Below are positions 1 through 12,639 of a stretch of 12,639 nucleotides of DNA, one piece after another; positions within the stretch are counted from its first letter, which is position 1; the number at the start of each line of letters is the position of its first letter. Location: IMG/VR virus record IMGVR_UViG_3300045988_123990. One strand, written 5' to 3'. The position numbers and the translations under genes were made by a program. The notes beneath the pieces were generated by a model. That model did no database searches. It worked only from the letters and a program-made list of their open reading frames with translations, and was not told the origin of the DNA. Origin of the DNA: a virus.

Positions 1-5
1 TTTGC

Positions 6-28
6 TGATGCATATGATGGAACTGATG
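6..28. repeat. Three direct TGATG iterons at an exact 9-bp period inside the ITR (mirrored at 12612-12634)
   Basis: TGATG occurs at 6-10, 15-19 and 24-28. The overlapping palindromes ATGCAT (8-13) and CATATG (11-16) lie between the first two copies. The repeat is observed directly; its function is unknown. Confidence 0.85.
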
Positions 29-31
29 ACG

Positions 32-60
32 TTGAGCTTATTAATGCGACAAACGATAAA
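32..60 (+). promoter_or_regulatory. Candidate early promoter inside the ITR (TTGAGC-N17-GATAAA)
   Basis: The -35-like TTGAGC (32-37) and the -10-like GATAAA (55-60) are separated by 17 nt, and each matches consensus at 4/6. Only 123 nt lie upstream of the first gene and every gene is on the + strand, so an early promoter should sit in this interval. The exact hexamers are uncertain. Confidence 0.25.
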
Positions 61-123
61 GAAGCTATTGAGTTATTTAAAGAGATTATGAGATTAAAAG
101 AGGAAGAACAGGAGGAACACTAA

Positions 124-498
124 ATGAAATCAAAATACAAAAAAATTAAGTACACTAATACCGGGGTAAAAGCCCCGGTAGTAACTCTCATGAAATCAAC
201 CCCGGAACTTGATAGGTCAGACATAATAGAATTAAATTATCCAGAAATAAGGATCATCATAAGGAGAGTTGCACGAAAAACAATGTACAATCGTGCAAAG
301 TCTCTTATTTCCGTTTGCAAGGATGGCATTGTTAATGATTTTTATGTATATGATATCATTAATGATGCAAGAATTGTTTGTGAAAATCTATACTTAATCA
401 TAAAAAAACCAGAGTTAGTTACTTATGTAAAATTTGGGGAATATAAGATGATCTATAATGATATGAGAGGAGTTTTGTCACATGCCAAAGAATCCTAA
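124..498 (+). CDS. Hypothetical protein (124 aa), first gene after the ITR
   Basis: ATG at 124 lies 8 nt after GGAGG (111-115), and that SD is itself inside the ITR. The N-terminus is basic (MKSKYKKIKY). I recognise no motif. The ORF overlaps the next gene by 17 nt. Confidence 0.65.
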   Translation: MKSKYKKIKYTNTGVKAPVVTLMKSTPELDRSDIIELNYPEIRIIIRRVARKTMYNRAKSLISVCKDGIVNDFYVYDIINDARIVCENLYLIIKKPELVTYVKFGEYKMIYNDMRGVLSHAKES

Positions 499-1102
499 AA
501 TTCCAACAACAAGTAAAGGTTTGAATGTCAATCCGAACATGCTTACTACGCTGGAAGCTTTACAGCTACGCAGACAGCTTGCAAAACGTCTTAATCAGCG
601 TATGCGCAGATTAAAAGCAAAAGGTTTTGATTCAGAGGTTGGAGGAGCGTACGCAGACTACCAGGATCTACTTGCAAGATTTTTTCCGGGTAGATCAACC
701 ATCCCGGAAAACTTGGAAAATGAAAAATATAAAGGTCTGCCACGAACTCAAGTGAAAGCTATTCAAAAAATATTGAAAGAAAAAAGCAGCACAGTACAGG
801 GCTGGCATGAGATCATAGATCAACGTCAAAAAACCCTCAGCACTGAATACGGAATTAACTTCAAATCAAAAGAGGAAATGAAGTTATTTTTTAAATCTGA
901 GGTATGGAAGTGGATGCAACGATTTTATGACAGTAAACAGACAATGAGAATCATCAGTCATAAACTGGATGATTCTACGGTTTCTGAGATCATAAAAGAT
1001 CTGGAAAAATTCCGGGAGAGAACTGATCCAGATGCAGCTGATACGATAGCAAAACAACTAGGTTTTTCTGGCGAAGCAGAAGCTTTGAAATATAGACCAT
1101 AG
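482..1102 (+). CDS. Candidate terminal protein (replication primer), 206 aa
   Basis: The ORF lies 15 nt upstream of polB, which is where the terminal-protein gene sits in phi29 (gene 3 then gene 2). The SD AGAGGAG (466-472) lies 9 nt before the ATG. The basic helical N-terminal stretch LRRQLAKRLNQRMRRLKAKGFD resembles the phi29 TP N-terminus as I remember it. Coding status is strong; the functional call rests on synteny plus weak similarity. Confidence 0.5.
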   Translation: MPKNPKIPTTSKGLNVNPNMLTTLEALQLRRQLAKRLNQRMRRLKAKGFDSEVGGAYADYQDLLARFFPGRSTIPENLENEKYKGLPRTQVKAIQKILKEKSSTVQGWHEIIDQRQKTLSTEYGINFKSKEEMKLFFKSEVWKWMQRFYDSKQTMRIISHKLDDSTVSEIIKDLEKFRERTDPDAADTIAKQLGFSGEAEALKYRP

Positions 1103-1117
1103 CAAGGGAGGTAAAGT

Positions 1118-3241
1118 ATGGTAGTCGCAGGATATCCAATTCTTTATTTTAAAAACTATGATTATATGCGACTATTCAATGGTGATTTTATCCGGAGATC
1201 CAATGCAGGTCATTATCTAGGTGTCTATGAAAAAATAATAACTGTTGATACGGAAACTTTTGTCTATCTTAACAAAAACATTGGCTTTGTCACGGATTGG
1301 ACAATCACGATAGAGGATGATTGTTGTATTTACGGCAACCATGTTTCTGATCTGATTGATACGATCGACAGGATTTGCACAACTTTACATGCTGACGATA
1401 GCCACCTTGTACGCTTTTATGTGCATAACTTTCCATATGACTATGTTTTTCTTCGTAACCATTTTTTCCAAAAGTGGGGGAATCCTGATAAATCACTGGC
1501 TGCTAAGACACATAAATATATTTTTATGAAATGGACAGGACAAGGCATTGAGTTCCGTGATAGTCTCATCTTGACACAAAGATCACTTGAGAAGCTTTGT
1601 AAAGACATGGGAACAACTGAAAAAGCTGTGGGAACATGGGACTATAAGAAATTCCGAACGCCAGCAAGTCCACGTACAGCAAAAGAAATAGCCTATGTCT
1701 GTACGGATACAATCAGTCTATGCAAGGCATTACGCAAATACATAGATCAGCGAGGATTTAACGTGGCGAACTGTCCGCTGACCAATACGGGCTTTATCCG
1801 GACGAACGCCCGCAGGAGAGCAAGAAAAGACAAGAAATGGAGAAAGCAATTTGAGAAAATGGCTCTGACGTTGGAGCAATACGATCAAATGCTTGACTGC
1901 TATCATGGTGGCTATACGCATGCTAATAGGTATTATGTGAATCAATTAATAAAAGGGACTGTTGAATGTTATGATTTTGCAAGCTCATACATAGCCTGGA
2001 TGTGCTATTGTAAGTTTCCTATGTCGAATTTTTGTTATACAAATAATATAACATTAAAAGACATTATGGATTTGAAAGATGATTATGCTTTTTCTGGTTA
2101 TATCAGATTAAAGAATCTGAGACTGAAAAAAGACTGTCCTATGCCCCCGCTGTCTTTTTCAAAAGCAAAAGTTTGTGTTTTTCCAGAAGCCAAAAGCAAA
2201 AAAGAACAGTTTCATGATAATCTGGATAACGGAAAGATCGTCAACGCTGATCTTGTCATCTATCCATTTACGGATCCAGATTTAGAAGTAATCCTGTCAA
2301 GCTATGATTATGAATGGGCTGACGTGTCAAAAGTAATGAGAGCTACAAAAGACTACTTGCCGGAGTGGTTTACTGATTACTTGATGGAATTGTTTTTTAA
2401 AAAATGTATCCTTAAAGGTTTGGACGAAGCTAATTATATGATATCAAAGGGGGAGCTAAATGGCATGTACGGCATGACGGTTCAGAGAATCATTCAAATC
2501 TTATGTACAGAGCTTATGGAGTCAGGAGAGTGGGAAGCAAAAGAACCAGAGGACAGGGAAAAAGAGCTTGAAAAGTTCTATCGGAACAAGAACAGCTTTA
2601 TGCCCTACCAGTGGGGGCTATGGATCACAGCGTATGCACAAGATTATCTTTTCCGGCTGGGTTCCTGCTGCCGGAGGTGGTTATATTCTGACACAGATTC
2701 CGTAAAAGGCGCAGACTGGGATCATGATAAACTGGATGCATTTAATCAATCTATAGTTAACATGTCAGAAAAAAGAAATATCGGTGTAGTAGAGTATAAG
2801 GGAAAAATTTTCCGGCTTGGAATCGCTGAGTTTGACGGAATATACAGTGAGTTTATTACAATGGGTAGCAAACGCTATTGTTACCGTCTGAAAAAAGATG
2901 CATCTTTGCATCTAACGGTCGCAGGAGTTCCAAAAGATGGTATTTACTGTTTGAATGATGATATAACAAATTTTCGAAAAGGGTTTATTTTCAAAAATGA
3001 TTTGACATTCCGCAGGAACTACCGCAGAGCGAATGATTGGCAGGATCCAAAATGGAAGATGAAAACAGAGTATCTTTTCCATGACGGAATCAATGAAATG
3101 AATATTGATGGAAGCAAGATTGAATATGGTTGTGCCATCCGGTTAACAGATACAGAATATGAATTAGATCATACAATCCCATACGATAAAGAAACAGGAT
3201 TACCATTGCCGTTTGAAATGGAAGATACCGTGTACGGATAA
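1118..3241 (+). CDS. Family-B DNA polymerase, protein-primed (phi29 gp2-like) type, 707 aa
   Basis: GGGAGG (1106-1111) lies 6 nt before the ATG. Exonuclease motifs: Exo I TVDTETF (D44/E46, nt 1247-1255), Exo II HNFPYD (N104/D108, nt 1424-1441), Exo III YVCTD (Y193/D197, nt 1694-1708). Pre-motif A YHGGYT matches phi29 YRGGFT. Polymerase motifs: motif A YDFASSY (D286, nt 1973-1975), motif B KGELNGMYG (K444), motif C YSDTDS (D525/D527, nt 2684-2701), KxY motif GSKRY. Confidence 0.95.
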   Translation: MVVAGYPILYFKNYDYMRLFNGDFIRRSNAGHYLGVYEKIITVDTETFVYLNKNIGFVTDWTITIEDDCCIYGNHVSDLIDTIDRICTTLHADDSHLVRFYVHNFPYDYVFLRNHFFQKWGNPDKSLAAKTHKYIFMKWTGQGIEFRDSLILTQRSLEKLCKDMGTTEKAVGTWDYKKFRTPASPRTAKEIAYVCTDTISLCKALRKYIDQRGFNVANCPLTNTGFIRTNARRRARKDKKWRKQFEKMALTLEQYDQMLDCYHGGYTHANRYYVNQLIKGTVECYDFASSYIAWMCYCKFPMSNFCYTNNITLKDIMDLKDDYAFSGYIRLKNLRLKKDCPMPPLSFSKAKVCVFPEAKSKKEQFHDNLDNGKIVNADLVIYPFTDPDLEVILSSYDYEWADVSKVMRATKDYLPEWFTDYLMELFFKKCILKGLDEANYMISKGELNGMYGMTVQRIIQILCTELMESGEWEAKEPEDREKELEKFYRNKNSFMPYQWGLWITAYAQDYLFRLGSCCRRWLYSDTDSVKGADWDHDKLDAFNQSIVNMSEKRNIGVVEYKGKIFRLGIAEFDGIYSEFITMGSKRYCYRLKKDASLHLTVAGVPKDGIYCLNDDITNFRKGFIFKNDLTFRRNYRRANDWQDPKWKMKTEYLFHDGINEMNIDGSKIEYGCAIRLTDTEYELDHTIPYDKETGLPLPFEMEDTVYG

Positions 3242-3264
3242 AATGTTATAAATCTGTAATAGTT

Positions 3265-3292
3265 TTGTAACATAAATAAGTTACAATATAGA
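3265..3292 (+). promoter_or_regulatory. Palindrome TTGTAAC-N8-GTTACAA overlapping a promoter-like TTGTAA-N16-TATAGA
   Basis: This lies in the 68-nt gap after the polB stop. The 7-bp inverted repeat spans 3265-3271 and 3280-3286. The -35-like TTGTAA is at 3265-3270 and the -10-like TATAGA at 3287-3292. It could be an operator plus middle promoter or a weak hairpin. Confidence 0.3.
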
Positions 3293-3309
3293 CAGGAGGT
3301 GAAAAAACC

Positions 3310-3423
3310 ATGAAAAAATTCTGGAAAGAAAATAAAGAAGATATTGAAACGCTTTTCTGGACTTGTGTTACTTTTGTTTGTATGTTTGCAAGCTGTCAAG
3401 TATGGTTACTGTTAGTGGATTAA
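3310..3423 (+). CDS. Small membrane protein, 37 aa (not in the ORF track)
   Basis: ATG 3310 lies 10 nt after GGAGG (3295-3299). Translation: MKKFWKENKEDIETLFWTCVTFVCMFASCQVWLLLVD. The N-terminus is charged and is followed by one hydrophobic helix. The ORF fills an otherwise empty gap. Confidence 0.55.
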   Translation: MKKFWKENKEDIETLFWTCVTFVCMFASCQVWLLLVD

Positions 3424-3437
3424 AGGGAAGGTAAATC

Positions 3438-3659
3438 ATGAAAAAAGTTGTTGAAGTGGCTGAGATTAAAAAGAAAATTGAAAAATTAATAAACTCAGCA
3501 AATGAAGATTTTAAGAAAGGGTTTAATAATTTATATGACTTGAAAATCTATGTGGCAAAAGTAATGTTTTCCTATTTAGAAGATCTAATATGTGAACCGG
3601 AAACTTGGGAAGATGATATGTTTCGTCTGAATGAGTGGATGGATTCATTAAGACATTAA
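3438..3659 (+). CDS. Hypothetical protein, 73 aa, basic N-terminus and acidic C-terminus
   Basis: ATG follows AAGGGAAGG (3422-3430). The protein looks helical and has the acidic tail EPETWEDDMFRLNEWMD. I recognise no motif. Confidence 0.7.
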   Translation: MKKVVEVAEIKKKIEKLINSANEDFKKGFNNLYDLKIYVAKVMFSYLEDLICEPETWEDDMFRLNEWMDSLRH

Positions 3660-3672
3660 GGAGGTGAGAAAA

Positions 3673-3804
3673 GTGATTGATATGTCAGAAATTTATGAAA
3701 CATTGCGAACAAGCAGCCTGCGAAGAGTAACTTACGAGGATGACGAAATTAGTATCGTAGCTTATAAGGTTGGAAAAATCATTAGAATTGATATAAGGGG
3801 GTAA
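3673..3804 (+). CDS. Hypothetical protein, 43 aa, GTG start (not in the ORF track)
   Basis: GTG 3673 lies 8 nt after GGAGG (3660-3664, within AAGGAGGTG). Translation: (M)IDMSEIYETLRTSSLRRVTYEDDEISIVAYKVGKIIRIDIRG. The ORF fills the gap between 3659 and 3809 exactly. Confidence 0.5.
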   Translation: MIDMSEIYETLRTSSLRRVTYEDDEISIVAYKVGKIIRIDIRG

Positions 3805-3808
3805 CAAG

Positions 3809-4006
3809 ATGAATCTGTCTATGGATGATGCTTATAAAGCACTTACTATCATTTCTAAAGTGTGCAGGGAAAATGAACAATGTAAATCCTGCCCATTTTC
3901 AATCACAGGAAAATGTGGGATAGTAACACAAGGTTATCCGTCTTATTGGGACATAAAAGTTCCTAACATAGAATTATTTAACCAAAGGAGAGAAACTTCA
4001 TGTTAA
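3809..4006 (+). CDS. Hypothetical Cys-rich protein, 65 aa
   Basis: ATG lies 7 nt after AAGGGGG (3795-3801). The cysteine pattern is C19-x5-C25-x2-C28-x7-C36 (CRENEQCKSCPFSITGKCG), a possible metal-binding knuckle. Confidence 0.7.
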   Translation: MNLSMDDAYKALTIISKVCRENEQCKSCPFSITGKCGIVTQGYPSYWDIKVPNIELFNQRRETSC

Positions 4007-4299
4007 AATCAAATGTAAAAATTAATTGCAGACCTTATAATGGAAACTCAAAAACAAAAGCTTTTGTTGATCTGGAACTGGACAAGACTCTTGTAATTAA
4101 AGGGTTAACACTGGTTAAGGGTAAAGACGGGCTTTTCCTGTCATTCCCAAGCACAAAAGGAAAAGATGGAAAATACTATAATTCAGTCTATTCACTTGAT
4201 AAAGAATGGACAGGGATTCTCCAGGATGCTTGTATCAAAAAATACAATGAATGCAACCAGACTTCACAGCCTACATCCTCCGGAGGTGTATTTCAATAA
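4000..4299 (+). CDS. SpoVG-fold nucleic-acid-binding protein homologue, 99 aa
   Basis: KAFVDLELDKTLVIKGLTLVKGKDGLFLSFPSTKGKDGKYYNSVYSLDKEWTGILQDACIKKY aligns by eye to the SpoVG core ([46 protein letters not shown]...IQDAVLNEY). GGAG (3987-3990) lies 9 nt before the ATG. The stop overlaps the ATPase start (TAATG). Confidence 0.7.
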   Translation: MLKSNVKINCRPYNGNSKTKAFVDLELDKTLVIKGLTLVKGKDGLFLSFPSTKGKDGKYYNSVYSLDKEWTGILQDACIKKYNECNQTSQPTSSGGVFQ

Positions 4300-5345
4300 T
4301 GAATATCTACGATAAAAATGGTTGGTTGGACGTTCCAAGGATTGTCCAGCTTGCCGATAAAAATGAAATTAACTTCATTTTCATCATTGGCGCACGTAGA
4401 ACCGGAAAAACATATGGAATTTTCCAACACTTCATTAATGATCTTTTTTCCAAAAATGAGAAGATCATCTACATGAGACGTACAAAAGAGCAACTGAAAA
4501 AAGTATTTCTTCCGGAGTTTGATCCGTGGCTGGATATCAATAAAGTTATGAACAAGTTTTTTCATTTTGAAAAACCCAGAGGTGAATACGGACGTATCAA
4601 GATCATGGAGCAAACAGAAGATGAACAAGTTTATAGGGGTGAAGCGTTTTGCCTTACATCCATGCATAACAACCGTGGATTCTCTGGATCTGATTTCTCT
4701 GAGGGGATTTATGATGAGTTCATCCCGGAGAAGATCGCTAAGTCAATCAGTGGGGAGGATGATGCTTTTCTGAATGCGGTTGAGACCATATCGGCAAACA
4801 GGGAGTTGCAGGGAAAGAAGCCGTTCCGGTGGTGGCTTGCTTCCAATTCGAACACACTGGACAACCCGATTGTACAGGCTTTTGGTTTGCTTCCAGTCTT
4901 GGAGCGAATGAAAAAGAACAAGCAAGAGTTTTCCATGTTGAGAGAGAGAGGAATCATCTTAGTTCTGATTAATGATTCCCCGATTTCAGAAAAGAAGAAA
5001 TATACTGCTTTGTATCGTGCTTTATTGGGAGATAGTGACTTTGCAAAGATGGCACTCTCAAATGAATTTGCATACGATGACGTTTCTGCTATCCGATCGG
5101 AAGATATCCGACAATACAAACTTATTTGTGTGATCGGAAAAGTTGCGATTTATGAACACAAGTCAAAAGCGCACTTGTATGTGTCGGATCATGTTTCTGG
5201 ATCTTGCAGGGACGTATTTGAAGACACACAGCATGGCAAGGATCAGTTCCGCTGCTTTTATAGCTGGATTGACAGCTATCGTCTGACAAATAGAATCAGC
5301 TATCAGAATATTTCTGTAAAATTCTATATTGACAAACTATTTTAA
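4299..5345 (+). CDS. DNA encapsidation (packaging) ATPase, phi29 gp16-like, 348 aa
   Basis: Walker A GARRTGKT (aa 31-38, nt 4389-4412) sits in FIFIIGARRTGKTYG, close to phi29 gp16 FVIGARGIGKSY as I recall it. A Walker B-like GIYDEF is present. I chose the start at ATG 4299 (TAATG coupling, GGAGGTG at 4282-4288) over the ORF-track ATG 4251, which lies inside the preceding gene. Confidence 0.9.
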   Translation: MNIYDKNGWLDVPRIVQLADKNEINFIFIIGARRTGKTYGIFQHFINDLFSKNEKIIYMRRTKEQLKKVFLPEFDPWLDINKVMNKFFHFEKPRGEYGRIKIMEQTEDEQVYRGEAFCLTSMHNNRGFSGSDFSEGIYDEFIPEKIAKSISGEDDAFLNAVETISANRELQGKKPFRWWLASNSNTLDNPIVQAFGLLPVLERMKKNKQEFSMLRERGIILVLINDSPISEKKKYTALYRALLGDSDFAKMALSNEFAYDDVSAIRSEDIRQYKLICVIGKVAIYEHKSKAHLYVSDHVSGSCRDVFEDTQHGKDQFRCFYSWIDSYRLTNRISYQNISVKFYIDKLF

Positions 5346-5358
5346 AAATTATATATTA

Positions 5359-5440
5359 GAGATAGGTCAACGTGGCTACATCGACCGCCGGAAGCGGATG
5401 CCATGGGGTGATTACCCAGAAGCGTTGACCTATTTTAATT
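5359..5440 (+). terminator. GC-rich branched stem-loop (three-way junction) plus U tract: intrinsic terminator and/or small structured RNA
   Basis: 5362-5372 ATAGGTCAACG pairs perfectly with 5423-5433 CGTTGACCTAT (11 bp). Inside are two hairpins. The first spans 5373-5403 (TGG/CCA, CAT/ATG, CCGC/GCGG, loop CGGAA). The second spans 5404-5418 (TGGG/CCCA). TATTTTAATTTT follows. The element lies in the ATPase-scaffold intergenic gap. Confidence 0.5.
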
Positions 5441-5471
5441 TTCAATTCCGGCAGAAAAGGAGAAAAAGAAA

Positions 5472-5807
5472 ATGAATGTAAATGAAATTTTAGAACTCGG
5501 AAAGCTTGGATTTTCAAAAAATGAGATCATTGGGATTCTGAACGCTCAGAACATGACTGGGCTTAATCAGATCACAAGCCCACAGGGTACAGAACAGATT
5601 CAGAATCTGGGGCAGCAGGTTGCAAATACTCCACTGAATCTGACAGCACAGACAGGACAGGATGCAACCAATACAGCTCTGCTGACAGCAATCAATACTC
5701 TGACTGCTACGTTACAGGCTGGGAACCTGTCAGCTTCCGGAAAAACTGGATCTGCTCCACGCACTTCGGATAACGTGGCAGAAGATCTTATGAAACTTAT
5801 GAATTAA
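5472..5807 (+). CDS. Candidate scaffolding protein, 111 aa
   Basis: The gene lies immediately upstream of the major capsid gene, as phi29 gp7 does. It is small, with a helical N-terminus and a Q/T/N/A-rich low-complexity centre. AAAGGAGA (5457-5464) precedes the ATG. The call rests on position and composition only. Confidence 0.45.
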   Translation: MNVNEILELGKLGFSKNEIIGILNAQNMTGLNQITSPQGTEQIQNLGQQVANTPLNLTAQTGQDATNTALLTAINTLTATLQAGNLSASGKTGSAPRTSDNVAEDLMKLMN

Positions 5808-5819
5808 GGGGGAAATAAA

Positions 5820-7016
5820 ATGGCAAATAGTTTAGTCGTACAGGATGCATATTTGATCATTAATGACCTGTACAAGATGGCTACCGGACGGGAGAATATC
5901 AAGGCAGTAGATACAAGTTCTTTTGTAGCTGTTGGTGAAACCATGCTGCGGACAGGTGTAGAACCAACACTGAAAGCACTCAGTCAGTGGTGTGGACGAA
6001 CCTATTTTGAAATGGAAAAATACAGATCCGGAGTGTTTCGTTCTATCATCGAGAATAATGAGAGATGGGGAGCTATCACCCGTGAGATCATCTCACTTCC
6101 ATTGGATGCAGAAGCATCCCAGGATTGGAATACAGATCTGAATGAAAACCAGCTCGCCGATGGTCAGTCTGTCGATATGTACAAAATTAATGCACCAAAA
6201 GTAGTGGAGTTGAAATTCTATGGTTCAAAACTTTTGCAATCTCATATAACACGTTTCCGGGATCAGCTGGCATTGGCTTTTTCCAACGAAGCAGAGTTTC
6301 TTATGTTTGTAACTTCCTATATGACAGCTTACTATAATGACATTGAATCAAGAAATGAAGCAAAACGCAGACTGACGGTGCTTAACTTCATGGCTGGTAT
6401 CTCCTCGCTTGGCACAAATGAGGTAGATCTTGTTAAGGAATATAACACAGCCTACGGTACAGAGCTTACAAGAAAGCAGCTTTTAAGTTCGGAACATCAC
6501 AGAGACTTCATGGCTTTTGTGGTTGCCAGGATTAAAAAAGATTCAAAGAAGATGCAGGATCGCACAACAAAATATCATATGAATCTGACTGGAAAAGATA
6601 TTTTGAGATTCACTCGACCAGAGAACCAGAAACTGCTTATGTACACAGATTTCTGGATTGACAGCGAAACACAGGTATTCCCGACAGTCTTTTCTGATGA
6701 ACAGCTTAAAATCGCTGACAAAGAGTTGGTAAACGGCTGGCAGGAGTTCGACAGCCCTGCGATCAATATTACCCCAAACATCATTGATGCTGATGGAGTT
6801 TCAAAAAAAGCAACAACAGCGGTATCTCTTCCTTATGTGCTTGGTCTTTTATATGATCGTCGTGCAATGGGAGTAAATAACCAGTGGATGTATTCCGCAG
6901 CTACGCCATTCAATGCAGCAGGTGGTTATTACAATATCTTTGACCACTATCGTTTTAACGCTTGGAACAACTTCACACACAATGCAATTCTTTATGTACT
7001 GGGGGAGGGAGTATAA
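5820..7016 (+). CDS. Major capsid protein, phi29 gp8-like, 398 aa
   Basis: The C-terminal block GLLYDRRAMGVNNQWMYSAATPFNAAGGYYNIFDHYRFNAWNNFTHNAILYV parallels phi29 gp8 [51 protein letters not shown] (from memory). The N-terminal AVDTSSFVAVGETML parallels gp8 ATANNVAEVGAGIL. AAGGGGGA precedes the ATG. Confidence 0.85.
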   Translation: MANSLVVQDAYLIINDLYKMATGRENIKAVDTSSFVAVGETMLRTGVEPTLKALSQWCGRTYFEMEKYRSGVFRSIIENNERWGAITREIISLPLDAEASQDWNTDLNENQLADGQSVDMYKINAPKVVELKFYGSKLLQSHITRFRDQLALAFSNEAEFLMFVTSYMTAYYNDIESRNEAKRRLTVLNFMAGISSLGTNEVDLVKEYNTAYGTELTRKQLLSSEHHRDFMAFVVARIKKDSKKMQDRTTKYHMNLTGKDILRFTRPENQKLLMYTDFWIDSETQVFPTVFSDEQLKIADKELVNGWQEFDSPAINITPNIIDADGVSKKATTAVSLPYVLGLLYDRRAMGVNNQWMYSAATPFNAAGGYYNIFDHYRFNAWNNFTHNAILYVLGEGV

Positions 7017-7017
7017 T

Positions 7018-7329
7018 ATGGTTCATTTTTATATACCTCCATCATCTTCCGTAATCATTAGTGGTTTGACAGGGGATGATGGAATTAGAAGAATAATATG
7101 CTATTCAAGTGGTGCATCAACTTCAAACTTATTATATAAAGGGGAATTAATCGCTAGCTTTAATAATAATAATAACATTGATATTGATTTTAGAAGCTAT
7201 TATGGCTTTCCAAAATTGTCAGATTTCTCAATCGAGTCATCTCCTAATATTACAATTTCGGTTCTGGCTGACATTGTGCCATACAGTGTTAGTGTAGATG
7301 ATTATATCGAAACAAGGGAGGTCACATAG
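7018..7329 (+). CDS. Hypothetical small beta-rich protein, 103 aa, in the head-fibre/decoration position
   Basis: ATG 7018 follows GGGGGAGGGAG (7001-7011) and lies 1 nt after the capsid stop. I chose this start over the upstream ATG 6913, which lies inside the capsid gene. The ORF contains an NNNNN run encoded by (AAT)4AAC at 7162-7176. I recognise no motif. Confidence 0.65.
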   Translation: MVHFYIPPSSSVIISGLTGDDGIRRIICYSSGASTSNLLYKGELIASFNNNNNIDIDFRSYYGFPKLSDFSIESSPNITISVLADIVPYSVSVDDYIETREVT

Positions 7330-7331
7330 AA

Positions 7332-7556
7332 ATGATGGATACATTTTTGACAATTCTTGGCAACTATGCTTTTCCAATCGTATGCTGTTGTGTGATGGCA
7401 TACTTTGTCAAGTATATGTATGACCAAACCAACGCACGAGTTGACAAGCTCAACGAGGAACACAAAAACGAAGTTGATACACTTTCTGAGGTTATAAAAA
7501 ACAATACACTTGCAGTTGAAAAAATGAACTCACTTATTGAACACTTGGGAAAATGA
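7332..7556 (+). CDS. Putative holin (single N-terminal TM helix, charged coiled C-terminus), 74 aa
   Basis: The hydrophobic segment FLTILGNYAFPIVCCCVMAYFV resembles YvrJ-family small membrane proteins and is followed by a highly charged tail. The gene lies immediately upstream of the lysin gene. AAGGGAGGT (7313-7321) lies upstream. Confidence 0.55.
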   Translation: MMDTFLTILGNYAFPIVCCCVMAYFVKYMYDQTNARVDKLNEEHKNEVDTLSEVIKNNTLAVEKMNSLIEHLGK

Positions 7557-7567
7557 GGTGAAAAGAC

Positions 7568-8188
7568 ATGACAGCGAACGAACTTATCGAAAATGCAAAG
7601 GAATTACTTGGAGTGAGATATGTGTGGGGTGGTTCAACCCCCACACAGGGACTTGACTGTTCTGGCTTGCTTTACTGGATCCAGAAAAAAGCGGGGTCAA
7701 ATGTTGGTAGACTGACTGCTTCCAGCTACTCAAAGCTTGGTGAAAAGATTCCAATTGGAGAGCAGAAAGTAGGTGACTTTCTTTTTTTCGGCGCTCCGGT
7801 AACTCATTGTGCTATTTTTATAGGCAATGGCTATATGATTGAGAGCCGAGGAGTTGGAGTAGTCAAAAGTCTTGTAAGTCGTAGGTCTGACTTATCTTGC
7901 ATCCGCAGGGTATGGGATGAAAAAAGTCCATCTTATGAAATAGGCAACACTTATACTACCATAGTAGATCATTTACACGTACGCTATTCTATCTGGGGAC
8001 AGGTCAAAGAGTATGCACAGCTGACAAGGGATGGCATGAAACATGCTTATTCAGATGGTTGCTTGAAAAGAGGAACCACAGTCACGGTAAAAGATATAAA
8101 AAAAGATGAAGTTGGGTCAACGTGGGTACGGATTCCATCTGGCTGGGTATGCGCAATCACATCAAAAGGCGAGGTATATATAAAATGA
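7568..8188 (+). CDS. NlpC/P60 cysteine peptidase with C-terminal SH3b-like wall-binding domain (endolysin), 206 aa
   Basis: VRYVWGGSTPTQGLDCSGLLYW carries the catalytic C31. GDFLFFGAPVTHCAIFIGNGYMIES carries H80 and E92 as the likely third residue. The C-terminal roughly 80 aa (HVRYSIWGQV...GTTVTVKDIKKDEVGSTWVRIPSGWVCA) looks like SH3_3. GAGGTG lies 7 nt before the ATG. Confidence 0.9.
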   Translation: MTANELIENAKELLGVRYVWGGSTPTQGLDCSGLLYWIQKKAGSNVGRLTASSYSKLGEKIPIGEQKVGDFLFFGAPVTHCAIFIGNGYMIESRGVGVVKSLVSRRSDLSCIRRVWDEKSPSYEIGNTYTTIVDHLHVRYSIWGQVKEYAQLTRDGMKHAYSDGCLKRGTTVTVKDIKKDEVGSTWVRIPSGWVCAITSKGEVYIK

Positions 8189-9531
8189 CAGAAATTATTT
8201 TATATCATTTTTCCAAACGAAAAAACAGCACCAAAAGACCGACAGGACAGGGGACAACCGTCCCCTGTCTTTTAAAATCAAATACAACTTTTCAAAATCC
8301 GGTATTTAAGCTAAAATTATCATTAGATAATGCTTTGCAATACAACTATTTGAAGTGGGCTGACCATTACTATTTTATTAGCTCAACAGTTTCACTGAAT
8401 AATGACATGGTTGAGATCTCAGCGAGTGAGGATGTGTTAGCTACTTACCGGACAGAAATTAGCAACTATACATGTTTTATTGAGAGATCCAGTAAACAAA
8501 CTACGCTTGCCAATGATCCTATGTATATAGCAACAAATGATTGGGTGCTAACCACAAGAAATGTAAGTCACAAAGAAAAAATAATGTCATCTACATACGC
8601 ACAGCACTATATCATACGAGTAGTTTCAAGAACTGGCGTAGCATCCTACTATATAAACGGCGATCAATTAAACAATTTGCTTGACTATATGTACACAGAA
8701 TCAAATTTTACCGACGTAATAACGGATGCCGTTACAAAGTTAATGTTTGATCCTTTTAAATATATAGTTGATTTGAAATGGGTTCCCTTTATTGAAGCTG
8801 CCTTTAAAAATAGTAATACTGAAACAATACAGCTAGGCTTTTGGGACAGCGGTGTAATGGCAAAAAGAATTGATGAAGATACAGTTGTGAATTTTTCTTA
8901 TTCTTTTGCTTTTGATAATCCACTTTATGCTATCACTGATTTCAGATACTATAGTCCCTCATTTTCAAATTATTTTATAAAGCTTCCTTTTATTGGAGTG
9001 GTTGCACTTAACCCTTATAAAATAGATGAAAGTGTAAATGCATTGTATCAGTTTGATGGAACAAGTGGGTTGTGCAATGTGTTTTTACAATCAAAAAAAG
9101 TTGTTTTTGCAACTTATCAATTCCAGCTTTCGGTTCCAGTGCAAATAGGTTATGCAAGCACAAACATAGCTCAACTAACTACCTCAGCTGTGAGTCTTGT
9201 TGGGGCTGGATTGCAAGGAAATATTGCACAAGGTATCTCCGCAGGAATAGAGACAGGAAGAAGCATTACCGCACCGGAAGTATCTATGCTAGGGACTATT
9301 GGCAATATATCAAACATATTAAATAACCAGATTTTAGAGTTCAATTCATATTCTTGTACAAGTCTTGATCCAGATGGAGCAAGTGAGGGTTATGTAGATG
9401 GTACTGTAAGCACCATTTCTGCACTGAGTGGGTTTCTAAAGTGCCGGGATGCATCAATCCAGATTGCAGGATTTGAGGGAGATCAAGAACAAGTGAATAG
9501 TTACTTAAACGAGGGATTTTATTTTGAATAA
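8185..9531 (+). CDS. Tail knob / distal tail tube protein, phi29 gp9-like, 448 aa
   Basis: The start is ATG 8185, which overlaps the lysin stop (ATGA). The ORF-track GTG 8122 lies inside the lysin gene. The N-terminal KLKLSLDNALQYNYLKWADHYYFISSTVSLNNDMVEISASEDVLATYRTEISNYTCFIERS parallels phi29 gp9 VSLRLDLLYNASYIMFQN...[29 protein letters not shown]...FIVREH (from memory). Its position beside the portal gene fits. Confidence 0.55.
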   Translation: MTEIILYHFSKRKNSTKRPTGQGTTVPCLLKSNTTFQNPVFKLKLSLDNALQYNYLKWADHYYFISSTVSLNNDMVEISASEDVLATYRTEISNYTCFIERSSKQTTLANDPMYIATNDWVLTTRNVSHKEKIMSSTYAQHYIIRVVSRTGVASYYINGDQLNNLLDYMYTESNFTDVITDAVTKLMFDPFKYIVDLKWVPFIEAAFKNSNTETIQLGFWDSGVMAKRIDEDTVVNFSYSFAFDNPLYAITDFRYYSPSFSNYFIKLPFIGVVALNPYKIDESVNALYQFDGTSGLCNVFLQSKKVVFATYQFQLSVPVQIGYASTNIAQLTTSAVSLVGAGLQGNIAQGISAGIETGRSITAPEVSMLGTIGNISNILNNQILEFNSYSCTSLDPDGASEGYVDGTVSTISALSGFLKCRDASIQIAGFEGDQEQVNSYLNEGFYFE

Positions 9532-9551
9532 GGGAGGAATGAAAAAAAAAC

Positions 9552-10472
9552 ATGTGGACACCGGTTAATTTTGATAAAATCAACATATGCACTAATTACT
9601 TCCAACCATCCGGCATAAAAGTTGACAGTTTATATACTGATACATTTGATCGGATGCTTTACGAGCGTGTATGTTCTATACTTGATATAACATACAATGG
9701 AAACATTGACATTGACTATTTCAAATATTGCCTGCTTTTTGGGGGGTATATTTGCATCACAAAGACAGATCTTTATGGAATGATCGCACAGTACCCAATG
9801 CTGACAGGGTACAATATTTACTTTAAGCCAACCACAGCTACTATACACACGTATGCAAGTAATGCTACAATTGACATGGAGGACATGGAGATCGGAAAAG
9901 ATTGCTCAGTCATCTATCTCAGACCAACTTTCTGTGGAATTGGAGATATTATTGGATTTTATAGTTATAAACTGGCACTTGTAGCAAGTGCTTTTGACAT
10001 GAATGTTTTTAATTCAAAGCTTGCATTTCTGATAGCTGCGAAAAATAAGGCAGCAGCTCAGACATTGAAAAAAATCTATGATAGCATACAAGCTGGTAAT
10101 CCAGTTGAAGCTTTTGATGTATCAATTAAAACTGAGGACAGACAGGGAAGCAAACAGGATGCATGGGAAAGCTTCAACAAGGATCTGAAGCAAAACTTTA
10201 TTGCACCGGAGCTGATTGAAGTATTTGAAAAGCTTCTGGATCAGTTCGACACAGAAGTCGGTATCCCGTCCGTCGGATCAGATAAAAAAGAACGTCTGAA
10301 TGTGCTTGAAACAAGCAAGAATGATGCAGAATCCGTGACACGGTTAACAACCTGGCTTGAGACAATGCAAGCAGGAGTTGACATGACAAACAGACTTTAT
10401 CCGGAGATGAATCTGTCAATCAAGATCAGAAGTTATGAAACTGCGGAGGTGAAAAGTTATGGGACTTTATAA
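9552..10472 (+). CDS. Portal / head-tail connector (upper collar), phi29 gp10-like, 306 aa
   Basis: The size matches gp10 (about 309 aa). [26 protein letters not shown] parallels gp10 [36 protein letters not shown]...[30 protein letters not shown]...[14 protein letters not shown] parallels gp10 MGVVIYNND...[30 protein letters not shown]...LKQVYNQYEGNAPV (from memory). Confidence 0.8.
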   Translation: [306 protein letters not shown]

Positions 10473-11148
10473 GGTTACGATAGCAGGACTTTATGAATGG
10501 AATAGCGCACTGTTTGACAAGATGGAGTTCCCAGAATCAGCAGACAGGCAGAATTTTATTGATAGCTTGCTTCTGTCCTATGGGGATTGTGAACCGTTAT
10601 ACCCGGACTGGGATTTCATGCATGAGAGTGCTATTCCTGCCTGGAGCAGGAAGTGGAAAAGTAGCATTGACAAGGTTTATAACGTGTTAGAATTAACAAA
10701 TTATGAACCGATTGAAAACTATGACCGTCATGAAGAATGGACAGATAGCCCGGATATGACGCGAACAAGTCAAAGTTCCGGGCAGGATGTAAACAGGGCA
10801 GAAGCTGAACAGGGAACCACTACGACCAACTCTGGGGCAGATACAGCTACAAATGAAGTCAGTGCTTTTAATGAAGCAAACTACAGCCCAAACGAAAAAA
10901 CAACTACAGAGTACGGCGGTAGCACAACGGTGCAAATCTCCGGTGAAAATAAAAACACGTTTGAATATGGCAAGGGTGAAACAAGCAGAGAGACAGGACA
11001 GAATAAGCACTCCGGGCGAATTCATGGTAATATCGGCGTAACTACTTCACAACAGATGATCCAGTCGGAGCTTGAGTTGCGAAAACAAAGCTTTATTGAC
11101 TATTGCACCGGACTATTTGCACAGGACTTGCTTTTATTAACTTATTAA
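10459..11148 (+). CDS. Lower collar / tail tube adaptor, phi29 gp11-like, 229 aa
   Basis: The gene follows the portal gene with a 14-nt overlap, and GGAGGTG (10445-10451) precedes the ATG. The N-terminal ...PAWSRKW...YNVLELTNYEPIENYDRHEEW and the C-terminal GNIGVTTSQQMIQSELELR are patterns I associate with picovirus lower-collar proteins. The centre is a T/S/G/N-rich low-complexity region. Confidence 0.55.
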   Translation: MGLYKVTIAGLYEWNSALFDKMEFPESADRQNFIDSLLLSYGDCEPLYPDWDFMHESAIPAWSRKWKSSIDKVYNVLELTNYEPIENYDRHEEWTDSPDMTRTSQSSGQDVNRAEAEQGTTTTNSGADTATNEVSAFNEANYSPNEKTTTEYGGSTTVQISGENKNTFEYGKGETSRETGQNKHSGRIHGNIGVTTSQQMIQSELELRKQSFIDYCTGLFAQDLLLLTY

Positions 11149-11161
11149 GGAGGAATAAATT

Positions 11162-12418
11162 ATGTTTTTCAGATACCCACATAGCGGATCACAGGACATG
11201 AACTTAGACTGGTTGCTTAAAGTTGGCAAACAGGCTGACAAGGATCATGAGGAATGGACGCATATTAAAGATACTGCACAAACCATGATTGATGATGCCA
11301 TCCAGAAAAGTCTTGATGATGGAGAAATCGGAAAAGTGGTAAATGATGCCACTACAAAAGTAATCAACGAACAGATTGACCCATTAAAAGAACAGGTTGG
11401 AACAAATACGACTGATATCACAAAGTTACAAAAAAGGGAAGGACTTTTTGACCATTCCGGGAAAACCATCATCATTGGAGATAGCTATACCGTTGGCTAT
11501 ACTCCGGATGGCAATATTACTCCTTGGACTACTAACTTTATCAAGTACACCGGACTTGAGGATGTGACAATCTCCGCAAATGGTGGGGCATCTTTCTCAA
11601 CAGCTGCTAATTCATTTCTTATGCTATTAAACTCTGTACCGGCTTCTGCGGATGTAAAACAGATCCTTGTCGTAGGTGGATTTAATGAGTTCGGAACTTA
11701 TTCAGAAATTGAAAATGGAATCAATGCTTTTATGGGAGCAGCAGAAGTGAGATTTCCGAATGCAAAAGTATTTTCTGCCATGGTAGCATGGTCAGTAGAT
11801 CGGACGGATGATCCAACTGTACAGAATAGGCTCAAGATTGCAAAATCTGTTTATAACATCCAGAGAAAGAATTGGCGGTATCTGACAGGATCAGACTATA
11901 TTCTTCATGCTGACGGATTCCTTGGTTCTGATGGCTTCCACCCAAACGCAACCGGACAGGAGAGGCTTGCCTCCTATCTTGCTACCGCTGTTGAAACAGG
12001 GGCTTGTAGTCCATCATTCTATGAAGTTAGTGCAAATTTTGAAGCAGGTGACTTTGCGCCTACTCTAGGATCAAGTTGGGTGTTTGTTAGTTCATACAAT
12101 GAGAATACAAGTACTTTAATCTGGGGCAACTATGTTTGTTTACCAAACAGCGGAACACTTATCTGTGATGGCACTGAGTACCGTTTGGGGCGTATTTTCT
12201 CAACGTCCTTTATTGGAGACCATAACGGCTACACATGCTATCCAACTACTGTGATTATTAAGTCCAGCAGTGACTTTTATCACATCCCCGCACAGCTTAA
12301 CTTTCGGGGTCGGCATATCTATTTGAGTTTGTACGATATTTCTGATGACAAGCACAACTACCGGACTTTGACAGAAGTCACACAGGTACAGATTCATAGA
12401 GGAAGTATTACAATGTAA
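11162..12418 (+). CDS. Tail appendage / receptor-binding protein with central SGNH (GDSL) esterase domain, 418 aa
   Basis: AAGGAGG (11147-11153) lies 8 nt before the ATG. The N-terminal roughly 95 aa form a helical anchor (DMNLDWLL..., heptad-like). SGNH block I is IIIGDSYTVGY (G106-D107-S108, nt 11477-11485), block II ANGGASF, block III VVGGFNEF, and block V SDGFHPN (D257/H260, nt 11930-11941). The C-terminal roughly 140 aa are beta-rich and of unknown function. Confidence 0.8.
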   Translation: MFFRYPHSGSQDMNLDWLLKVGKQADKDHEEWTHIKDTAQTMIDDAIQKSLDDGEIGKVVNDATTKVINEQIDPLKEQVGTNTTDITKLQKREGLFDHSGKTIIIGDSYTVGYTPDGNITPWTTNFIKYTGLEDVTISANGGASFSTAANSFLMLLNSVPASADVKQILVVGGFNEFGTYSEIENGINAFMGAAEVRFPNAKVFSAMVAWSVDRTDDPTVQNRLKIAKSVYNIQRKNWRYLTGSDYILHADGFLGSDGFHPNATGQERLASYLATAVETGACSPSFYEVSANFEAGDFAPTLGSSWVFVSSYNENTSTLIWGNYVCLPNSGTLICDGTEYRLGRIFSTSFIGDHNGYTCYPTTVIIKSSSDFYHIPAQLNFRGRHIYLSLYDISDDKHNYRTLTEVTQVQIHRGSITM

Positions 12419-12430
12419 ATATAAAATATG

Positions 12431-12466
12431 ATAGCCCAGCATACCGCTGGGCTATTGTTTTATTTT
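12431..12466 (+). terminator. Rho-independent terminator closing the late operon (possibly bidirectional)
   Basis: A perfect 10-bp stem ATAGCCCAGC (12431-12440) / GCTGGGCTAT (12446-12455) carries the loop ATACC and is followed by TGTTTTATTTT. On the minus strand the hairpin is followed by CATATTTTATATTT. Confidence 0.8.
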
Positions 12467-12520
12467 GCATCTACCAAAAGCTTTCTTGATTTTCTTATGA
12501 TATATAGTCATTTCAAATAC

Positions 12521-12639
12521 TGTTCCTCCTGTTCTTCCTCTTTTAATCTCATAATCTCTTTAAATAACTCAATAGCTTCTTTATCGTTTGTCGCATTAAT
12601 AAGCTCAACGTCATCAGTTCCATCATATGCATCAGCAAA
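12521..12639. repeat. Right inverted terminal repeat (119 bp)
   Basis: Exact reverse complement of 1-119, ending at the last base of the window. Confidence 0.97.

Follow-up and report, generated by a model that had tools for sequence, protein, structure and literature searches.

The window, which is the whole 12,639-nt stretch of viral DNA analysed here, carries replication and packaging genes followed by head, lysis and tail genes, and is bounded by a perfect inverted repeat (Table 1). As the preliminary description had observed, positions 1-119 are the reverse complement of 12521-12639 with zero mismatches, and identity collapses from position 120 onward.

Table 1. Features of the window, with position, strand and basis of assignment
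Feature	Position	Strand	Basis or remark
Inner 119 bp of left ITR	1..119	+	Perfect mirror of right end; not genome end
ITR-borne small early gene, last 40 codons and stop	1..123	+	81 aa when complete: MKHGKILYGRY...EEQEEH
Early ORF, 124 aa	124..498	+	Good RBS
Putative terminal protein (TP), 206 aa	482..1102	+	Position only, directly upstream of polB
Protein-primed family B DNA polymerase (polB), 707 aa	1118..3241	+	Pfam, PHROG, motifs, PDB profile
Membrane ORF, 37 aa	3310..3423	+	RBS GGAGG, hydrophobic core, gene call in L060
Three small ORFs: 73, 43, 65 aa	3438..4006	+	
SpoVG-family protein, 99 aa	4000..4299	+	Pfam SpoVG 1.5e-15
gp16-type DNA packaging ATPase, 348 aa	4299..5345	+	Pfam Podovirus_Gp16 7.6e-16; PHROG 2150 5.8e-29
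Late promoter TTGACA-17-TATATT	5329..5357	+	Kept in all relatives
Three-way-junction RNA, 72 nt	5362..5433	+	Covariation, z-score, covariance model
RNA P1	5362-5372/5423-5433	+	
RNA P2a	5374-5376/5400-5402	+	
RNA R loop	5377-5384	+	
RNA P2b	5385-5388/5394-5397	+	
RNA pentaloop CGGAA	5389-5393	+	
RNA P3	5405-5407/5415-5417	+	
RNA L loop	5408-5414	+	
Scaffold-position protein, 111 aa	5472..5807	+	Precedes capsid gene
phi29-type major capsid protein, 398 aa	5820..7016	+	Pfam Phi29_MCP 4.2e-14
ORF, 103 aa	7018..7329	+	L060 gene call
Holin-like membrane protein, 74 aa	7332..7556	+	PHROG holin 5.9e-4
NlpC/P60 peptidoglycan endopeptidase (endolysin or tail lysin), 206 aa	7568..8188	+	Pfam NLPC_P60 9.3e-17
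Tail protein at gp9 (tail knob) position, 448 aa	8185..9531	+	Position; PHROG 2248 'tail protein' 1e-4, weak
Connector / upper collar (gp10), 306 aa	9552..10472	+	Pfam Phage_connector 3.6e-13; PHROG 2038 1e-22
Lower collar (gp11) homologue, 229 aa	10459..11148	+	Profile match and synteny
Tail appendage / receptor-binding candidate, SGNH (GDSL) esterase domain, 418 aa	11162..12418	+	gp12 position
Bidirectional intrinsic terminator	12428..12458	both	Closes rightward operon and leftward right-end gene
Right-end leftward copy of ITR gene, last 43 codons and stop	12508..12639	-	84 aa when complete
Inner 119 bp of right ITR	12521..12639	-	Perfect mirror of 1-119

The polymerase (Pfam DNA_pol_B_2, 1.3e-9; PHROG 1907, 3e-51) has the Exo and Pol motifs noted previously: ExoI D44/E46, ExoIII Y193/D197, motif A D286, motif B K444/N448/G452, motif C D525/D527 and KxY K585/Y587 are invariant in 11 diverse polBs, and a profile of these 11 returned phi29 DNA polymerase as its sole match in the PDB (1XHX, 4e-20). 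The putative TP stands where phi29 has gene 3, directly upstream of polB, and is weakly similar to the same-position ORFs of phage astrithr (E=0.004) and of the relative L065 (1e-5), with no match in Pfam or the PDB. The 124-aa ORF preceding it matched no family in Pfam or PHROG, and an identical protein occurs in ENA contigs. Downstream of polB, the 37-aa membrane ORF sits in an apparent intergenic gap. The SpoVG-family product is a candidate nucleic-acid-binding protein, and a 'stage V sporulation protein' has been reported from C. perfringens podophages (PMC3362512). The start codon of the gp16 ATPase was set by the L060 gene call.

The ATPase, the capsid protein and the connector all score above Pfam cut-offs, and a profile built from 62 diverse homologues of the lower collar protein found its best PDB match in 6QZ9, the phi29 'proximal tail tube connector protein' (E=1.5e-3). 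The phi29-type gene set of the preliminary description is thus borne out for polB, gp16, gp8, gp10 and gp11 by Pfam, PHROG or profile matches. Its gp9 analogue holds in part: a tail protein does occupy that position, with homologues in the same place in Amedibacillus phage AD70P2 and five metagenomic relatives, but its PHROG match is weak and a profile search of the PDB gave no match. The scaffold-position protein shares an N-terminal motif with L066 and L053 and matched no Pfam or PHROG family, the holin-like protein has an AD70P2 homologue at 6e-14, and the SGNH protein matches Lipase_GDSL_2 slightly under the Pfam family cut-off (3.7e-7) and PHROG 31573 (3e-24).

The predicted start of the late transcript coincides with the first bases of a structured RNA. 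Its helices covary, its z-score is -3.6, its R and L loops are complementary and this complementarity covaries as well, and a covariance model retrieves copies in distant relatives; no Rfam family matched, and RF00044 (pRNA) gave no score. We consider it an undescribed folded RNA with the topology of phi29 pRNA, and a candidate pRNA or late-mRNA leader. As in the phi29-family pRNA (features from PMC5066667), the 5' and 3' ends pair in one helix that opens into a three-way junction, helix 2 has a bulge loop on its 5' side and then a short helix capped by a conserved hairpin loop, and the loop of the third helix is complementary to the bulge loop and covaries with it. Unlike pRNA (117-174 nt; 174 nt in phi29), the RNA measures about 62-85 nt across members, and it lies at the 5' start of the late operon, whereas pRNA lies at the left genome end. 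The chance that it acts in cis as a 5' leader of the late mRNA (stabiliser, translational operator or antitermination element) rather than in trans as a packaging RNA falls a little short of even. It always starts at the predicted late-transcript start, only 5-40 nt separate P1 from the RBS of the following gene in many lineages, it remains with the holin-scaffold-capsid operon in L066 while gp16 is elsewhere, and the CGGAA pentaloop of the window clade and of L065 has its complement, UUCCG, just 5' of the RBS of the scaffold-position gene. A simple hairpin would, however, be enough for a stabiliser, whereas the three-way junction, the near-invariant C(A/G)GAA pentaloop and the covarying loop pair are kept despite only 25-35% protein identity; a three-way junction with paired covarying loops is the defining architecture of pRNA (PMC5066667), and many members have a U-rich tract 3' of P1.

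Both edges of the window fall within genes. Frame +1 meets its first stop, counted from base 1, at 121-123, and the complete left ITR ORF, with an RBS and a TTGACA-17-TATAAT promoter, is present in L057, in which window positions 1-119 and 1-123 correspond to 344-462 and 344-466, making it 343 bp longer on the left; in L002, which begins at the consensus terminus, positions 1-123 correspond to 278-400. On the right, L060 (99.99% identity over 11.5 kb) continues 259 bp and L061 (100% identity) 205 bp beyond the window, and both carry the complete right-end gene with RBS and promoter. The left end of L057 equals the right end of L060 over a stretch that opens about 96 nt inside the terminus and closes at window position 119; the two diverge exactly at 120. 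Two further contigs, L058 and L059 (99.8-99.95% identical, one of them a SPAdes NODE), both begin at window position 65, a SPAdes-type cut 55 nt outside the repeat boundary as against 119 nt in the window, and in other relatives the terminal repeats, 55, 99, 99 and 119 bp long, begin at internal ITR positions. Both 55 and 119 are common assembler k-mer sizes, and a de Bruijn assembler halting at a collapsed inverted repeat leaves each end with a repeat exactly k bases long. Truncation would thus be systematic rather than random, and the earlier argument that a repeat flush with both edges marks the genome ends is not confirmed: the assembler would merge both ITR copies, halt k bases in and yield a short contig.

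The clade terminus, 5'-AAACTTGGCAAG, lies at 27 contig ends, all opening exactly with AAACT[TA]GGCAAG, and occurs nowhere inside a contig; in L016 the Illumina adapter tail CTTCCGATCT immediately precedes it. The window ends lack it. In the nine relatives that have both true ends, the genome measures 12.88-13.56 kb and the ITRs 117-442 bp. From the clade terminus to window position 119, the real ITR of the window strain is about 474 bp rather than the 119 bp first reported, an estimate extended on the left with L057, a strain of 97.9% identity that stops 12 nt short of the consensus terminus. The terminus-to-terminus picture is pieced together from several contigs, none of which spans the exact window strain end to end, and it gives an estimated genome size of about 13.35 kb. 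Judged by these alignments, the window is almost the whole genome, with about 355 bp absent at each end, and not the complete, self-contained replicon that had been proposed. Within the ITR lie a terminal block that is conserved, short repeats of GTTCATA(T/A)TT, a promoter of sigma-A type directed inward and almost the entire small gene, so that the right end, from its sequence, is transcribed leftward through the 84-aa gene; the one-directional layout described previously applies to the large genes. ITR lengths and terminal genes vary from strain to strain within the species-level clade.

We conclude, with a probability of about 0.88, that the window is the unique core plus 119-bp ITR stubs of a phi29-like podophage genome that is linear, measures about 13.35 kb and comes from metagenomes of the human, in part infant, gut. 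It is improbable that the terminal repeat is instead an assembly chimera (fold-back or mis-join) of a real phage with the usual unique right-end gene and the ~225-bp ITR of most relatives. Some relatives (L006, L050) do have perfect terminal repeats, of 557 and 1430 bp, that arouse suspicion, and most relatives carry a different leftward gene, of 90-95 aa, at the right end. Against a chimera, the junction 12520/12521 recurs in L060 and L061, from different samples and assemblers, the k=55 cuts of L058 and L059 imply the same junction, what is left of the usual right-end gene ('KLLVDAK*') comes after it, as expected from recombinational takeover, and L033 independently has a 442-bp ITR holding a whole gene.

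Still less credible is a complete 12,639-bp genome with ITRs of exactly 119 bp and every gene rightward, which the perfect repeat flush with both edges would suggest; it is already contradicted by ORFs without a start at both ends, identical-strain contigs that pass both ends, the missing conserved terminus and independent assemblies cut at 55 nt, not 119 nt, from the same boundary. The chance is as slight that the element is a prophage, plasmid or circular phage genome. The one relative that hints at it, a 12,636-bp contig assigned to an Odoribacter MAG, is the size of a phage and is not joined to other DNA. The window lacks an integrase gene, a tRNA gene and bacterial flanks, the longest contigs reach about 13.8 kb, the terminal motif is never permuted or internal in relatives, and the polB profile matches phi29 polymerase alone. 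Among several hundred clusters, contigs with TP homologues do not surpass about 13.5 kb, which argues for an independent replicon.

The linear, protein-primed podophage genome with ITRs, a Gram-positive-style gene set and gut origin, as originally envisaged, is supported. The phi29 termini read AAAGTA (PMC11476376), and those of the window clade also begin 5'-AAA. By analogy with phi29, a covalently linked TP, probably the 206-aa ORF upstream of polB, would prime replication at both ends on the 3'-TTT template with sliding-back, and the gp16 ATPase on the connector would package unit-length TP-DNA. On the same model, the left ITR promoter would drive the rightward early genes (124-aa ORF, TP, polB, small ORFs, SpoVG-like protein, gp16), the internal promoter the late genes (scaffold-position, capsid, holin, lysin, tail, connector, lower collar, SGNH tail protein), and the right ITR promoter the leftward 84-aa gene as far as the shared terminator.

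The lineage, earlier suggested as possibly undescribed, is already public: GenBank MT836115.1 (UNVERIFIED Bacteriophage sp., human faeces, Mexico) aligns to 86% of the window at 88% nucleotide identity, polB identity is 92-97% in over 50 genomes of IMG/VR, and among ENA/Logan contigs identity rises to 99.99-100% (L060, L061). These records, which by sequence belong to the same species-level clade as the window, are unannotated, and we found no description of them in the literature. Nor is the genome near the lower size limit for tailed phages, as had been suggested, since cultured relatives measure 10.4-12.3 kb and IMG/VR holds hundreds of relatives of 10-14 kb.

Likeness to phi29 (Bacillus phage, Salasmaviridae) extends from the protein-primed polB, the gp16, gp8 and gp10 families and the gp11 homologue to the gene order gp7-8-9-10-11-12. 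Unlike the window, phi29 is 19.3 kb long with 6-bp ITRs and divergent early operons, its gp16 lies to the right of the late operon whereas gp16 here precedes the head genes, and its p5, p6, gp12 and gp13 have no detectable counterparts in the window. The Astrithrvirus group (Salmonella phage astrithr, Pectobacterium DU_PP_III, Acinetobacter Phanie, Vibrio K58 g2) consists of phi29-related podophages of 10.4-11.9 kb with polB close to the left end, mainly rightward transcription and a few leftward genes at the right end; it differs in Gram-negative hosts, a different order of head and connector genes and only 22-29% identity, and astrithr has neither a gap nor an RNA after the ATPase gene. Phanie depends on a helper myophage (PMC11476376). 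Amedibacillus phages AD70P2 and AD70P3 (OP172638, OP172639; Guelinviridae in GenBank), at 12.2-12.3 kb and with a human-gut-associated host, also have a terminal inverted repeat, recorded as 55 bp versus about 474 bp for the window strain. They share seven homologous proteins with the window at only 24-33% identity, with no nucleotide similarity, and SpoVG, NlpC/P60 and SGNH homologues were looked for in them and not detected. The same promoter and three-way-junction RNA come after gp16 (L063 6412-6473, minus strand). The gene order of AD70P2 and AD70P3 is that found here (TP-position gene, polB, small genes, gp16, scaffold-position gene, capsid, tail, portal, lower collar, fibre), and a single small opposite-strand gene again stands at the far end. 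The four departures from phi29 singled out earlier are thus the normal plan of cultured relatives, as seen in AD70P2 and similarly in Astrithrvirus.

In the 126-nt gap between the gp16 gene and the gene in the scaffold position, a conserved TTGACA-17-TATATT promoter is followed at once by a 72-nt RNA element that folds as a three-way junction of helices P1, P2 and P3 (see table for coordinates). The element has 56% G+C against 38.5% for the window, 97% of which is coding, and its folding z-score is -3.6. In an alignment of 36 sequences from the clade (the window and more than 50 near-identical gut genomes), 97% of the helix cells are paired, compared with 27-43% when the partners are slid, and eight pairs are changed on both sides, compared with 2.8 in shuffles (0/500); examples of covarying helices are CAACG/CGTTG, CAGAG/CTCTG and GGAAAGCA/TGCTTTCC. 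A covariance model (R1) built from the clade sequences alone found eight distant loci with E values from 3e-8 to 7e-4, every match lying on the gp16 strand. Using a descriptor that specifies a C[AG]GAA pentaloop on a closing stem of at least 4 bp, itself enclosed by a helix of 7 bp or more, we obtained a match no more than 400 nt 3' of the gp16 stop codon in half (40) of 80 very divergent loci, at 50 times the density in the rest of those loci. Variants with other pentaloops were seen by eye, including a copy in the cultured Amedibacillus phage AD70P2 (OP172638, 6412-6473, minus strand), and the element is absent 3' of gp16 in L133 and L141, the two contigs inspected from a further clade of gp16-encoding relatives (L123-L150). 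Searches of Rfam with the whole window and with 5340-5460 gave no credible family, and RF00044 had no match at E<=10 to the whole window or to this 121-nt region alone. The element is widely conserved and undescribed.

Coordinates of features in the window
Feature	Position	Strand
Left copy of the 119-bp inverted repeat	1-119	
Partial gene at the left edge (frame +1, open from base 1; stop codon at 121-123)	1-123	+
polB	1118-3241	+
37-aa hydrophobic ORF	3310-3423	+
SpoVG-family protein	4000-4299	+
Promoter ahead of the RNA element	5329-5357	
RNA element	5362-5433	+
Pentaloop CGGAA	5389-5393	
UUCCG complementary to the pentaloop	5446-5450	
Scaffold-position ORF	5472-5807	+
gp9-position ORF	8185-9531	+
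Last structural gene (SGNH/GDSL esterase domain)	11162-12418	+
Shared bidirectional terminator	12428-12458	
Mirror of the left-edge partial gene	12508-12639	-
Right copy of the 119-bp inverted repeat	12521-12639	

Two of its loops are complementary: R, an internal loop that lies immediately 5' to the helix of the pentaloop, and L, the hairpin loop that caps the third helix. The longest Watson-Crick run averages 3.58 over 40 distinct R/L pairs, compared with 2.13 for mismatched partners, and none of 20000 permutations reached 3.58. The core is AUC/GAU in the window and takes the forms ACC/GGU, UCC/GGA, GCAC/GUGC, GGCA/UGCC, GAGC/GCUC, GACC/GGUC, CAGC/GCUG and UGAUAA/UUAUCA elsewhere. Domain I of the phi29 packaging RNA (pRNA) consists of an end-to-end A helix, a three-way junction, a right-hand CE bulge loop, an E helix with its loop, and a left-hand D loop that pairs with the CE loop (PMC5066667). 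The RNA element has the topology that defines this domain, with the end-to-end helix, the junction and the C/E- and D-type helices all present, and its R/L complementarity resembles that of the CE and D loops, in a sequence that fits pairing within or between molecules. It differs in being about half the size of domain I and in being unmatched by the Rfam pRNA model. We put the probability that it is a true packaging RNA, a miniature prohead RNA with relatives in at least half of the 80 divergent gp16-encoding contigs and in AD70P2, at roughly 0.4. A packaging RNA of this kind would be freed from the 5' end of the late transcript, assemble into a ring by way of its covarying R and L loops, and link the connector to the gp16 ATPase.

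A cis-acting leader of the late mRNA is a serious rival, since the element is invariably found where the late operon begins, at its 5' end and only 5-40 nt ahead of the next ribosome-binding site (RBS), since one related locus (L066) keeps it with the late operon although gp16 is located elsewhere, and since the pentaloop can pair with a UUCCG segment just 5' of the RBS of the scaffold-position gene. This last complementarity is found in the window clade and in the related locus L065 but not in L053 and L054, and could affect translation by way of a pseudoknot or an alternative pairing. The packaging-RNA reading bears on the old question of whether gp16-type motors outside the Bacillus phages use a packaging RNA, and the cultured AD70P2 makes that question directly testable because it carries a copy. 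Reviews restrict the known occurrence of pRNA to phi29 and its Bacillus relatives (PMC5066667; PMC11476376), and a pRNA proposed for Cp-1 was not reliably identified by a covariance model (PMC6266182). If the element does serve in packaging, pRNA would be ancestral and widespread in gp16-type motors rather than peculiar to the Bacillus relatives of phi29, and the element would represent it in a natural form of much smaller size.

The genes around the element are largely as the preliminary description had them. The ORF called polB scores above the Pfam DNA_pol_B_2 cut-off and matches PHROG 1907, the ExoI, ExoIII, motif A, B and C, and KxY residues do not vary across 11 aligned polBs that are 26-31% identical to that of the window, and a profile of this alignment run against the whole PDB had phi29 DNA polymerase as its sole polymerase match (1XHX, E=4e-20), in an alignment that spans the TPR1 region. 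The gp16 ATPase, gp8-type capsid and gp10 connector likewise exceed the Pfam cut-offs (Podovirus_Gp16, Phi29_MCP and Phage_connector), and the proposed gp11, a 229-aa ORF following the connector, is syntenic and has phi29 gp11 as its best PDB match with a 62-sequence profile (6QZ9, E=1.5e-3). For the proposed gp9, a 448-aa ORF preceding the connector, synteny and a weak PHROG 'tail protein' match (1e-4) speak for the assignment, but its profile had no PDB match. Profiles of eight sequences matched nothing in the PDB for either the 229-aa or the 448-aa ORF, and single-sequence PDB searches with these two, polB and the terminal protein (TP) candidate returned nothing useful. That all genes run in one direction holds for the large ORFs, which are all on the plus strand, but not for the right end, which carries a leftward 84-aa gene.

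The remaining set comprises an NlpC/P60 lysin, a holin-like protein, a SpoVG-family protein and an SGNH-esterase tail protein, and the window holds no tRNA. An SGNH/GDSL esterase domain lies in the last structural gene and points to a receptor-binding protein with deacetylating activity, which by analogy would fill the role of the gp12 appendage of phi29. The SpoVG-family protein sits among the early genes and might stand in for the missing p6/p5-type DNA-binding proteins or bind the RNA element; a 'stage V sporulation protein' has been noted in C. perfringens podophages (PMC3362512). The apparent gap 3' of polB (3242-3437) was considered as a pRNA gene and rejected, as it is occupied by a 37-aa hydrophobic, membrane-type ORF with a strong RBS, which the standard 40-aa listing had missed. 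By its position, and as in phi29, a 206-aa ORF directly 5' of polB and overlapping the polB RBS region is the candidate TP. It is weakly similar to its equivalents in astrithr (Astrithrvirus group) and L065, has no Pfam or PDB match, and among the homologues listed found only relatives at least 88% identical; TPs are not recognisable by sequence across groups (PMC11476376).

The perfect 119-bp repeat at the two edges of the window, which had been taken to delimit a complete genome, is exact, the match breaking down from position 120, yet completeness does not follow: the edges fall within a gene, contigs of the same strain run beyond them, and about 355 bp of the inverted terminal repeat (ITR) are missing at each end. 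The left-edge frame (FADAYDG...EEQEEH*) is open from base 1, so the window starts mid-gene, and the minus strand at the right edge mirrors this partial gene. The closest GenBank record (MT836115.1) reaches past both edges. Searching IMG/VR with polB gave 55 relatives, mostly with 92-97% polB identity and on contigs of 11-13.8 kb, in which polB usually lies 200-400 bp farther from the contig end than in the window; the first 37 bases of the window have no exact match in IMG/VR. Window positions 1-123 map to 278-400 of L002, a relative that starts at the true terminus, and to comparable internal sites in 16 others.

Exact-protein look-ups located the same strain in other assemblies. One such contig, L057 (identical 124-aa ORF1, 97.9% identical overall), extends 343 bp farther left, stops 12 nt short of the consensus terminus and holds a full 81-aa gene with an RBS and a TTGACA-17-TATAAT promoter. 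Two others extend beyond the right edge, L060 (99.99% identical over 11.5 kb) by 259 bp and L061 (100% identical) by 205 bp, and both carry a complete 84-aa leftward copy of the ITR gene with the same RBS and promoter. The left end of L057 and the reverse complement of the right end of L060 are identical up to window position 119 and split at 120. Two more contigs of this strain, L058 and L059 (99.8-99.95% identical; one a SPAdes NODE), have their first base at window position 65, which is exactly 55 nt to the outer side of the 119/120 boundary, and other relatives have terminal repeats of 55, 99, 99 and 119 bp with starts at internal ITR positions. A de Bruijn graph assembler that meets a collapsed inverted repeat ends the unitig k bases inside it, and cuts at 55 and at 119 from one boundary look like assembler k values. 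From the divergence at 120 together with these cuts, we conclude that the inner boundary of the repeat is real and reproducible, while the outer boundary at the window edges is an artefact. The window is thus a worked example of a flush, perfect terminal repeat of k-mer length that is an assembler stub without being a genome end. In virome pipelines a contig commonly passes as complete if it has any ITR of 20 nt or more (PMC9610469), a criterion that mislabels many contigs of this clade.

When all contig ends were printed, a conserved terminus, 5'-AAACTTGGCAAG(G/A)NNAACCTGTGAACAAATTGT..., was found to start at the first base of 27 of them and at no internal position among the clade contigs. 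At the right end of one contig (L016; first 10 bases of the reverse complement), an Illumina adapter tail, CTTCCGATCT, directly abuts AAACTTGGCAAG; this junction is a physical DNA end caught in a read. The end of L061 is Nextera adapter sequence. By contrast, the window edges read TTTGCTGATGC... and differ from the conserved terminus. The clade genomes are therefore linear with ITRs at their physical ends, and the window lacks the outer ~355 bp of its ITR; with the 119 bp present, this puts the real ITR at about 355 + 119 = 474 bp and the genome at about 13.35 kb. This predicted genome would consist of AAACTTGGCAAG, L057 1-343, the window and the mirror image on the right, and would begin at the first A of AAACTTGG. 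Nine relatives with both true ends measure 12.88-13.56 kb, a size range that includes our estimate, and have ITRs of 117-442 bp. The ITRs contain a conserved terminal block starting with AAA, one to three GTTCATA(T/A)TT repeats and an inward promoter.

In the window strain, recombination has carried the ITR through the first gene and displaced most of the usual right-end leftward gene, of which a 'KLLVDAK*' remnant precedes the shared bidirectional terminator. Among L001-L056, the ITR-adjacent genes are mosaic between strains otherwise more than 90% identical (e.g. L002, L017, L031 and L033) and include at least three unrelated small ORF types plus hybrid ORFs. The mosaic end genes and the spread of ITR lengths among end-complete genomes suggest that end-to-end recombination is frequent in the clade. 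In two contigs (L006 and L050) whole genes fall within perfect terminal inverted repeats, of 557 and 1430 bp; these may be fold-back assembly chimeras or very long natural ITRs.

The window phage is a linear, protein-primed, phi29-like podophage. The AAA end would give a 3'-TTT template suited to sliding-back as in phi29, whose terminus is AAAGTA (PMC11476376). On the phi29 model, the early genes would be transcribed from the left ITR promoter and the late genes from the promoter ahead of the RNA element, gp16 would package TP-DNA through the connector, and lysis would fall to the holin and the NlpC/P60 enzyme. No sign of a prophage or a circular form was seen: integrase and tRNA genes and bacterial flanks are absent, none of the related contigs among hundreds of clusters is longer than ~13.8 kb, and in none is the terminus permuted or internal.

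The replicon itself is ordinary, a further member of the catalogued 10-14 kb phi29-like gut phages with cultured relatives of the same plan. The suggestion of an undescribed lineage gives way to a large catalogued assemblage with relatives in GenBank, IMG/VR, ENA and Logan, though these are undescribed there. A review from 2024 puts the number of phi29-like entries above 2000, many of them 12-16 kb human-gut genomes (PMC11476376), and an IMG/VR search with gp16 gave at least 471 relatives on contigs of 10-14.4 kb. The L123-L150 clade of IMG/VR contigs is large, and its members measure only 10.2-11.3 kb; if complete, these genomes are smaller than that of the window phage. The capsid protein has no relative in GTDB genomes, and a lysin search of bacterial genomes gave only one phage-sized contig (L151, CABPYD010000046.1; 12,636 bp, lysin 81% identical), filed under an 'uncultured Odoribacter sp.' MAG (UHGG/GTDB). 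The strong GGAGG RBSs, the TTGACA/TATAAT promoters, the NlpC/P60 lysin and the SpoVG-family protein of the phage argue that this placement is probably mis-binning, and the host is probably a member of the Bacillota.

We found no nucleotide similarity to classified phages. The polB is 23% identical to that of CpV1 over half its length (2e-4) and 29% identical to that of AD70P2, which GenBank files under the ICTV family Guelinviridae and which groups apart from the Clostridium members of that family (PMC11476376). The nearest cultured phages include Clostridium phage HM2 (polB 31% identical), the Astrithrvirus group (10.4-11.9 kb), and AD70P2 with its fellow Amedibacillus phage AD70P3 (OP172639). 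The two Amedibacillus phages are 12.2-12.3 kb long and share with the window seven homologous proteins at 24-33% identity in the same gene order, together with one small opposite-strand gene at the far end, as in the window plan. Since AD70P2 has this plan and the Astrithrvirus relatives a similar one, the four features that had been read as departures from phi29 are the standard layout of the relatives of the window phage.
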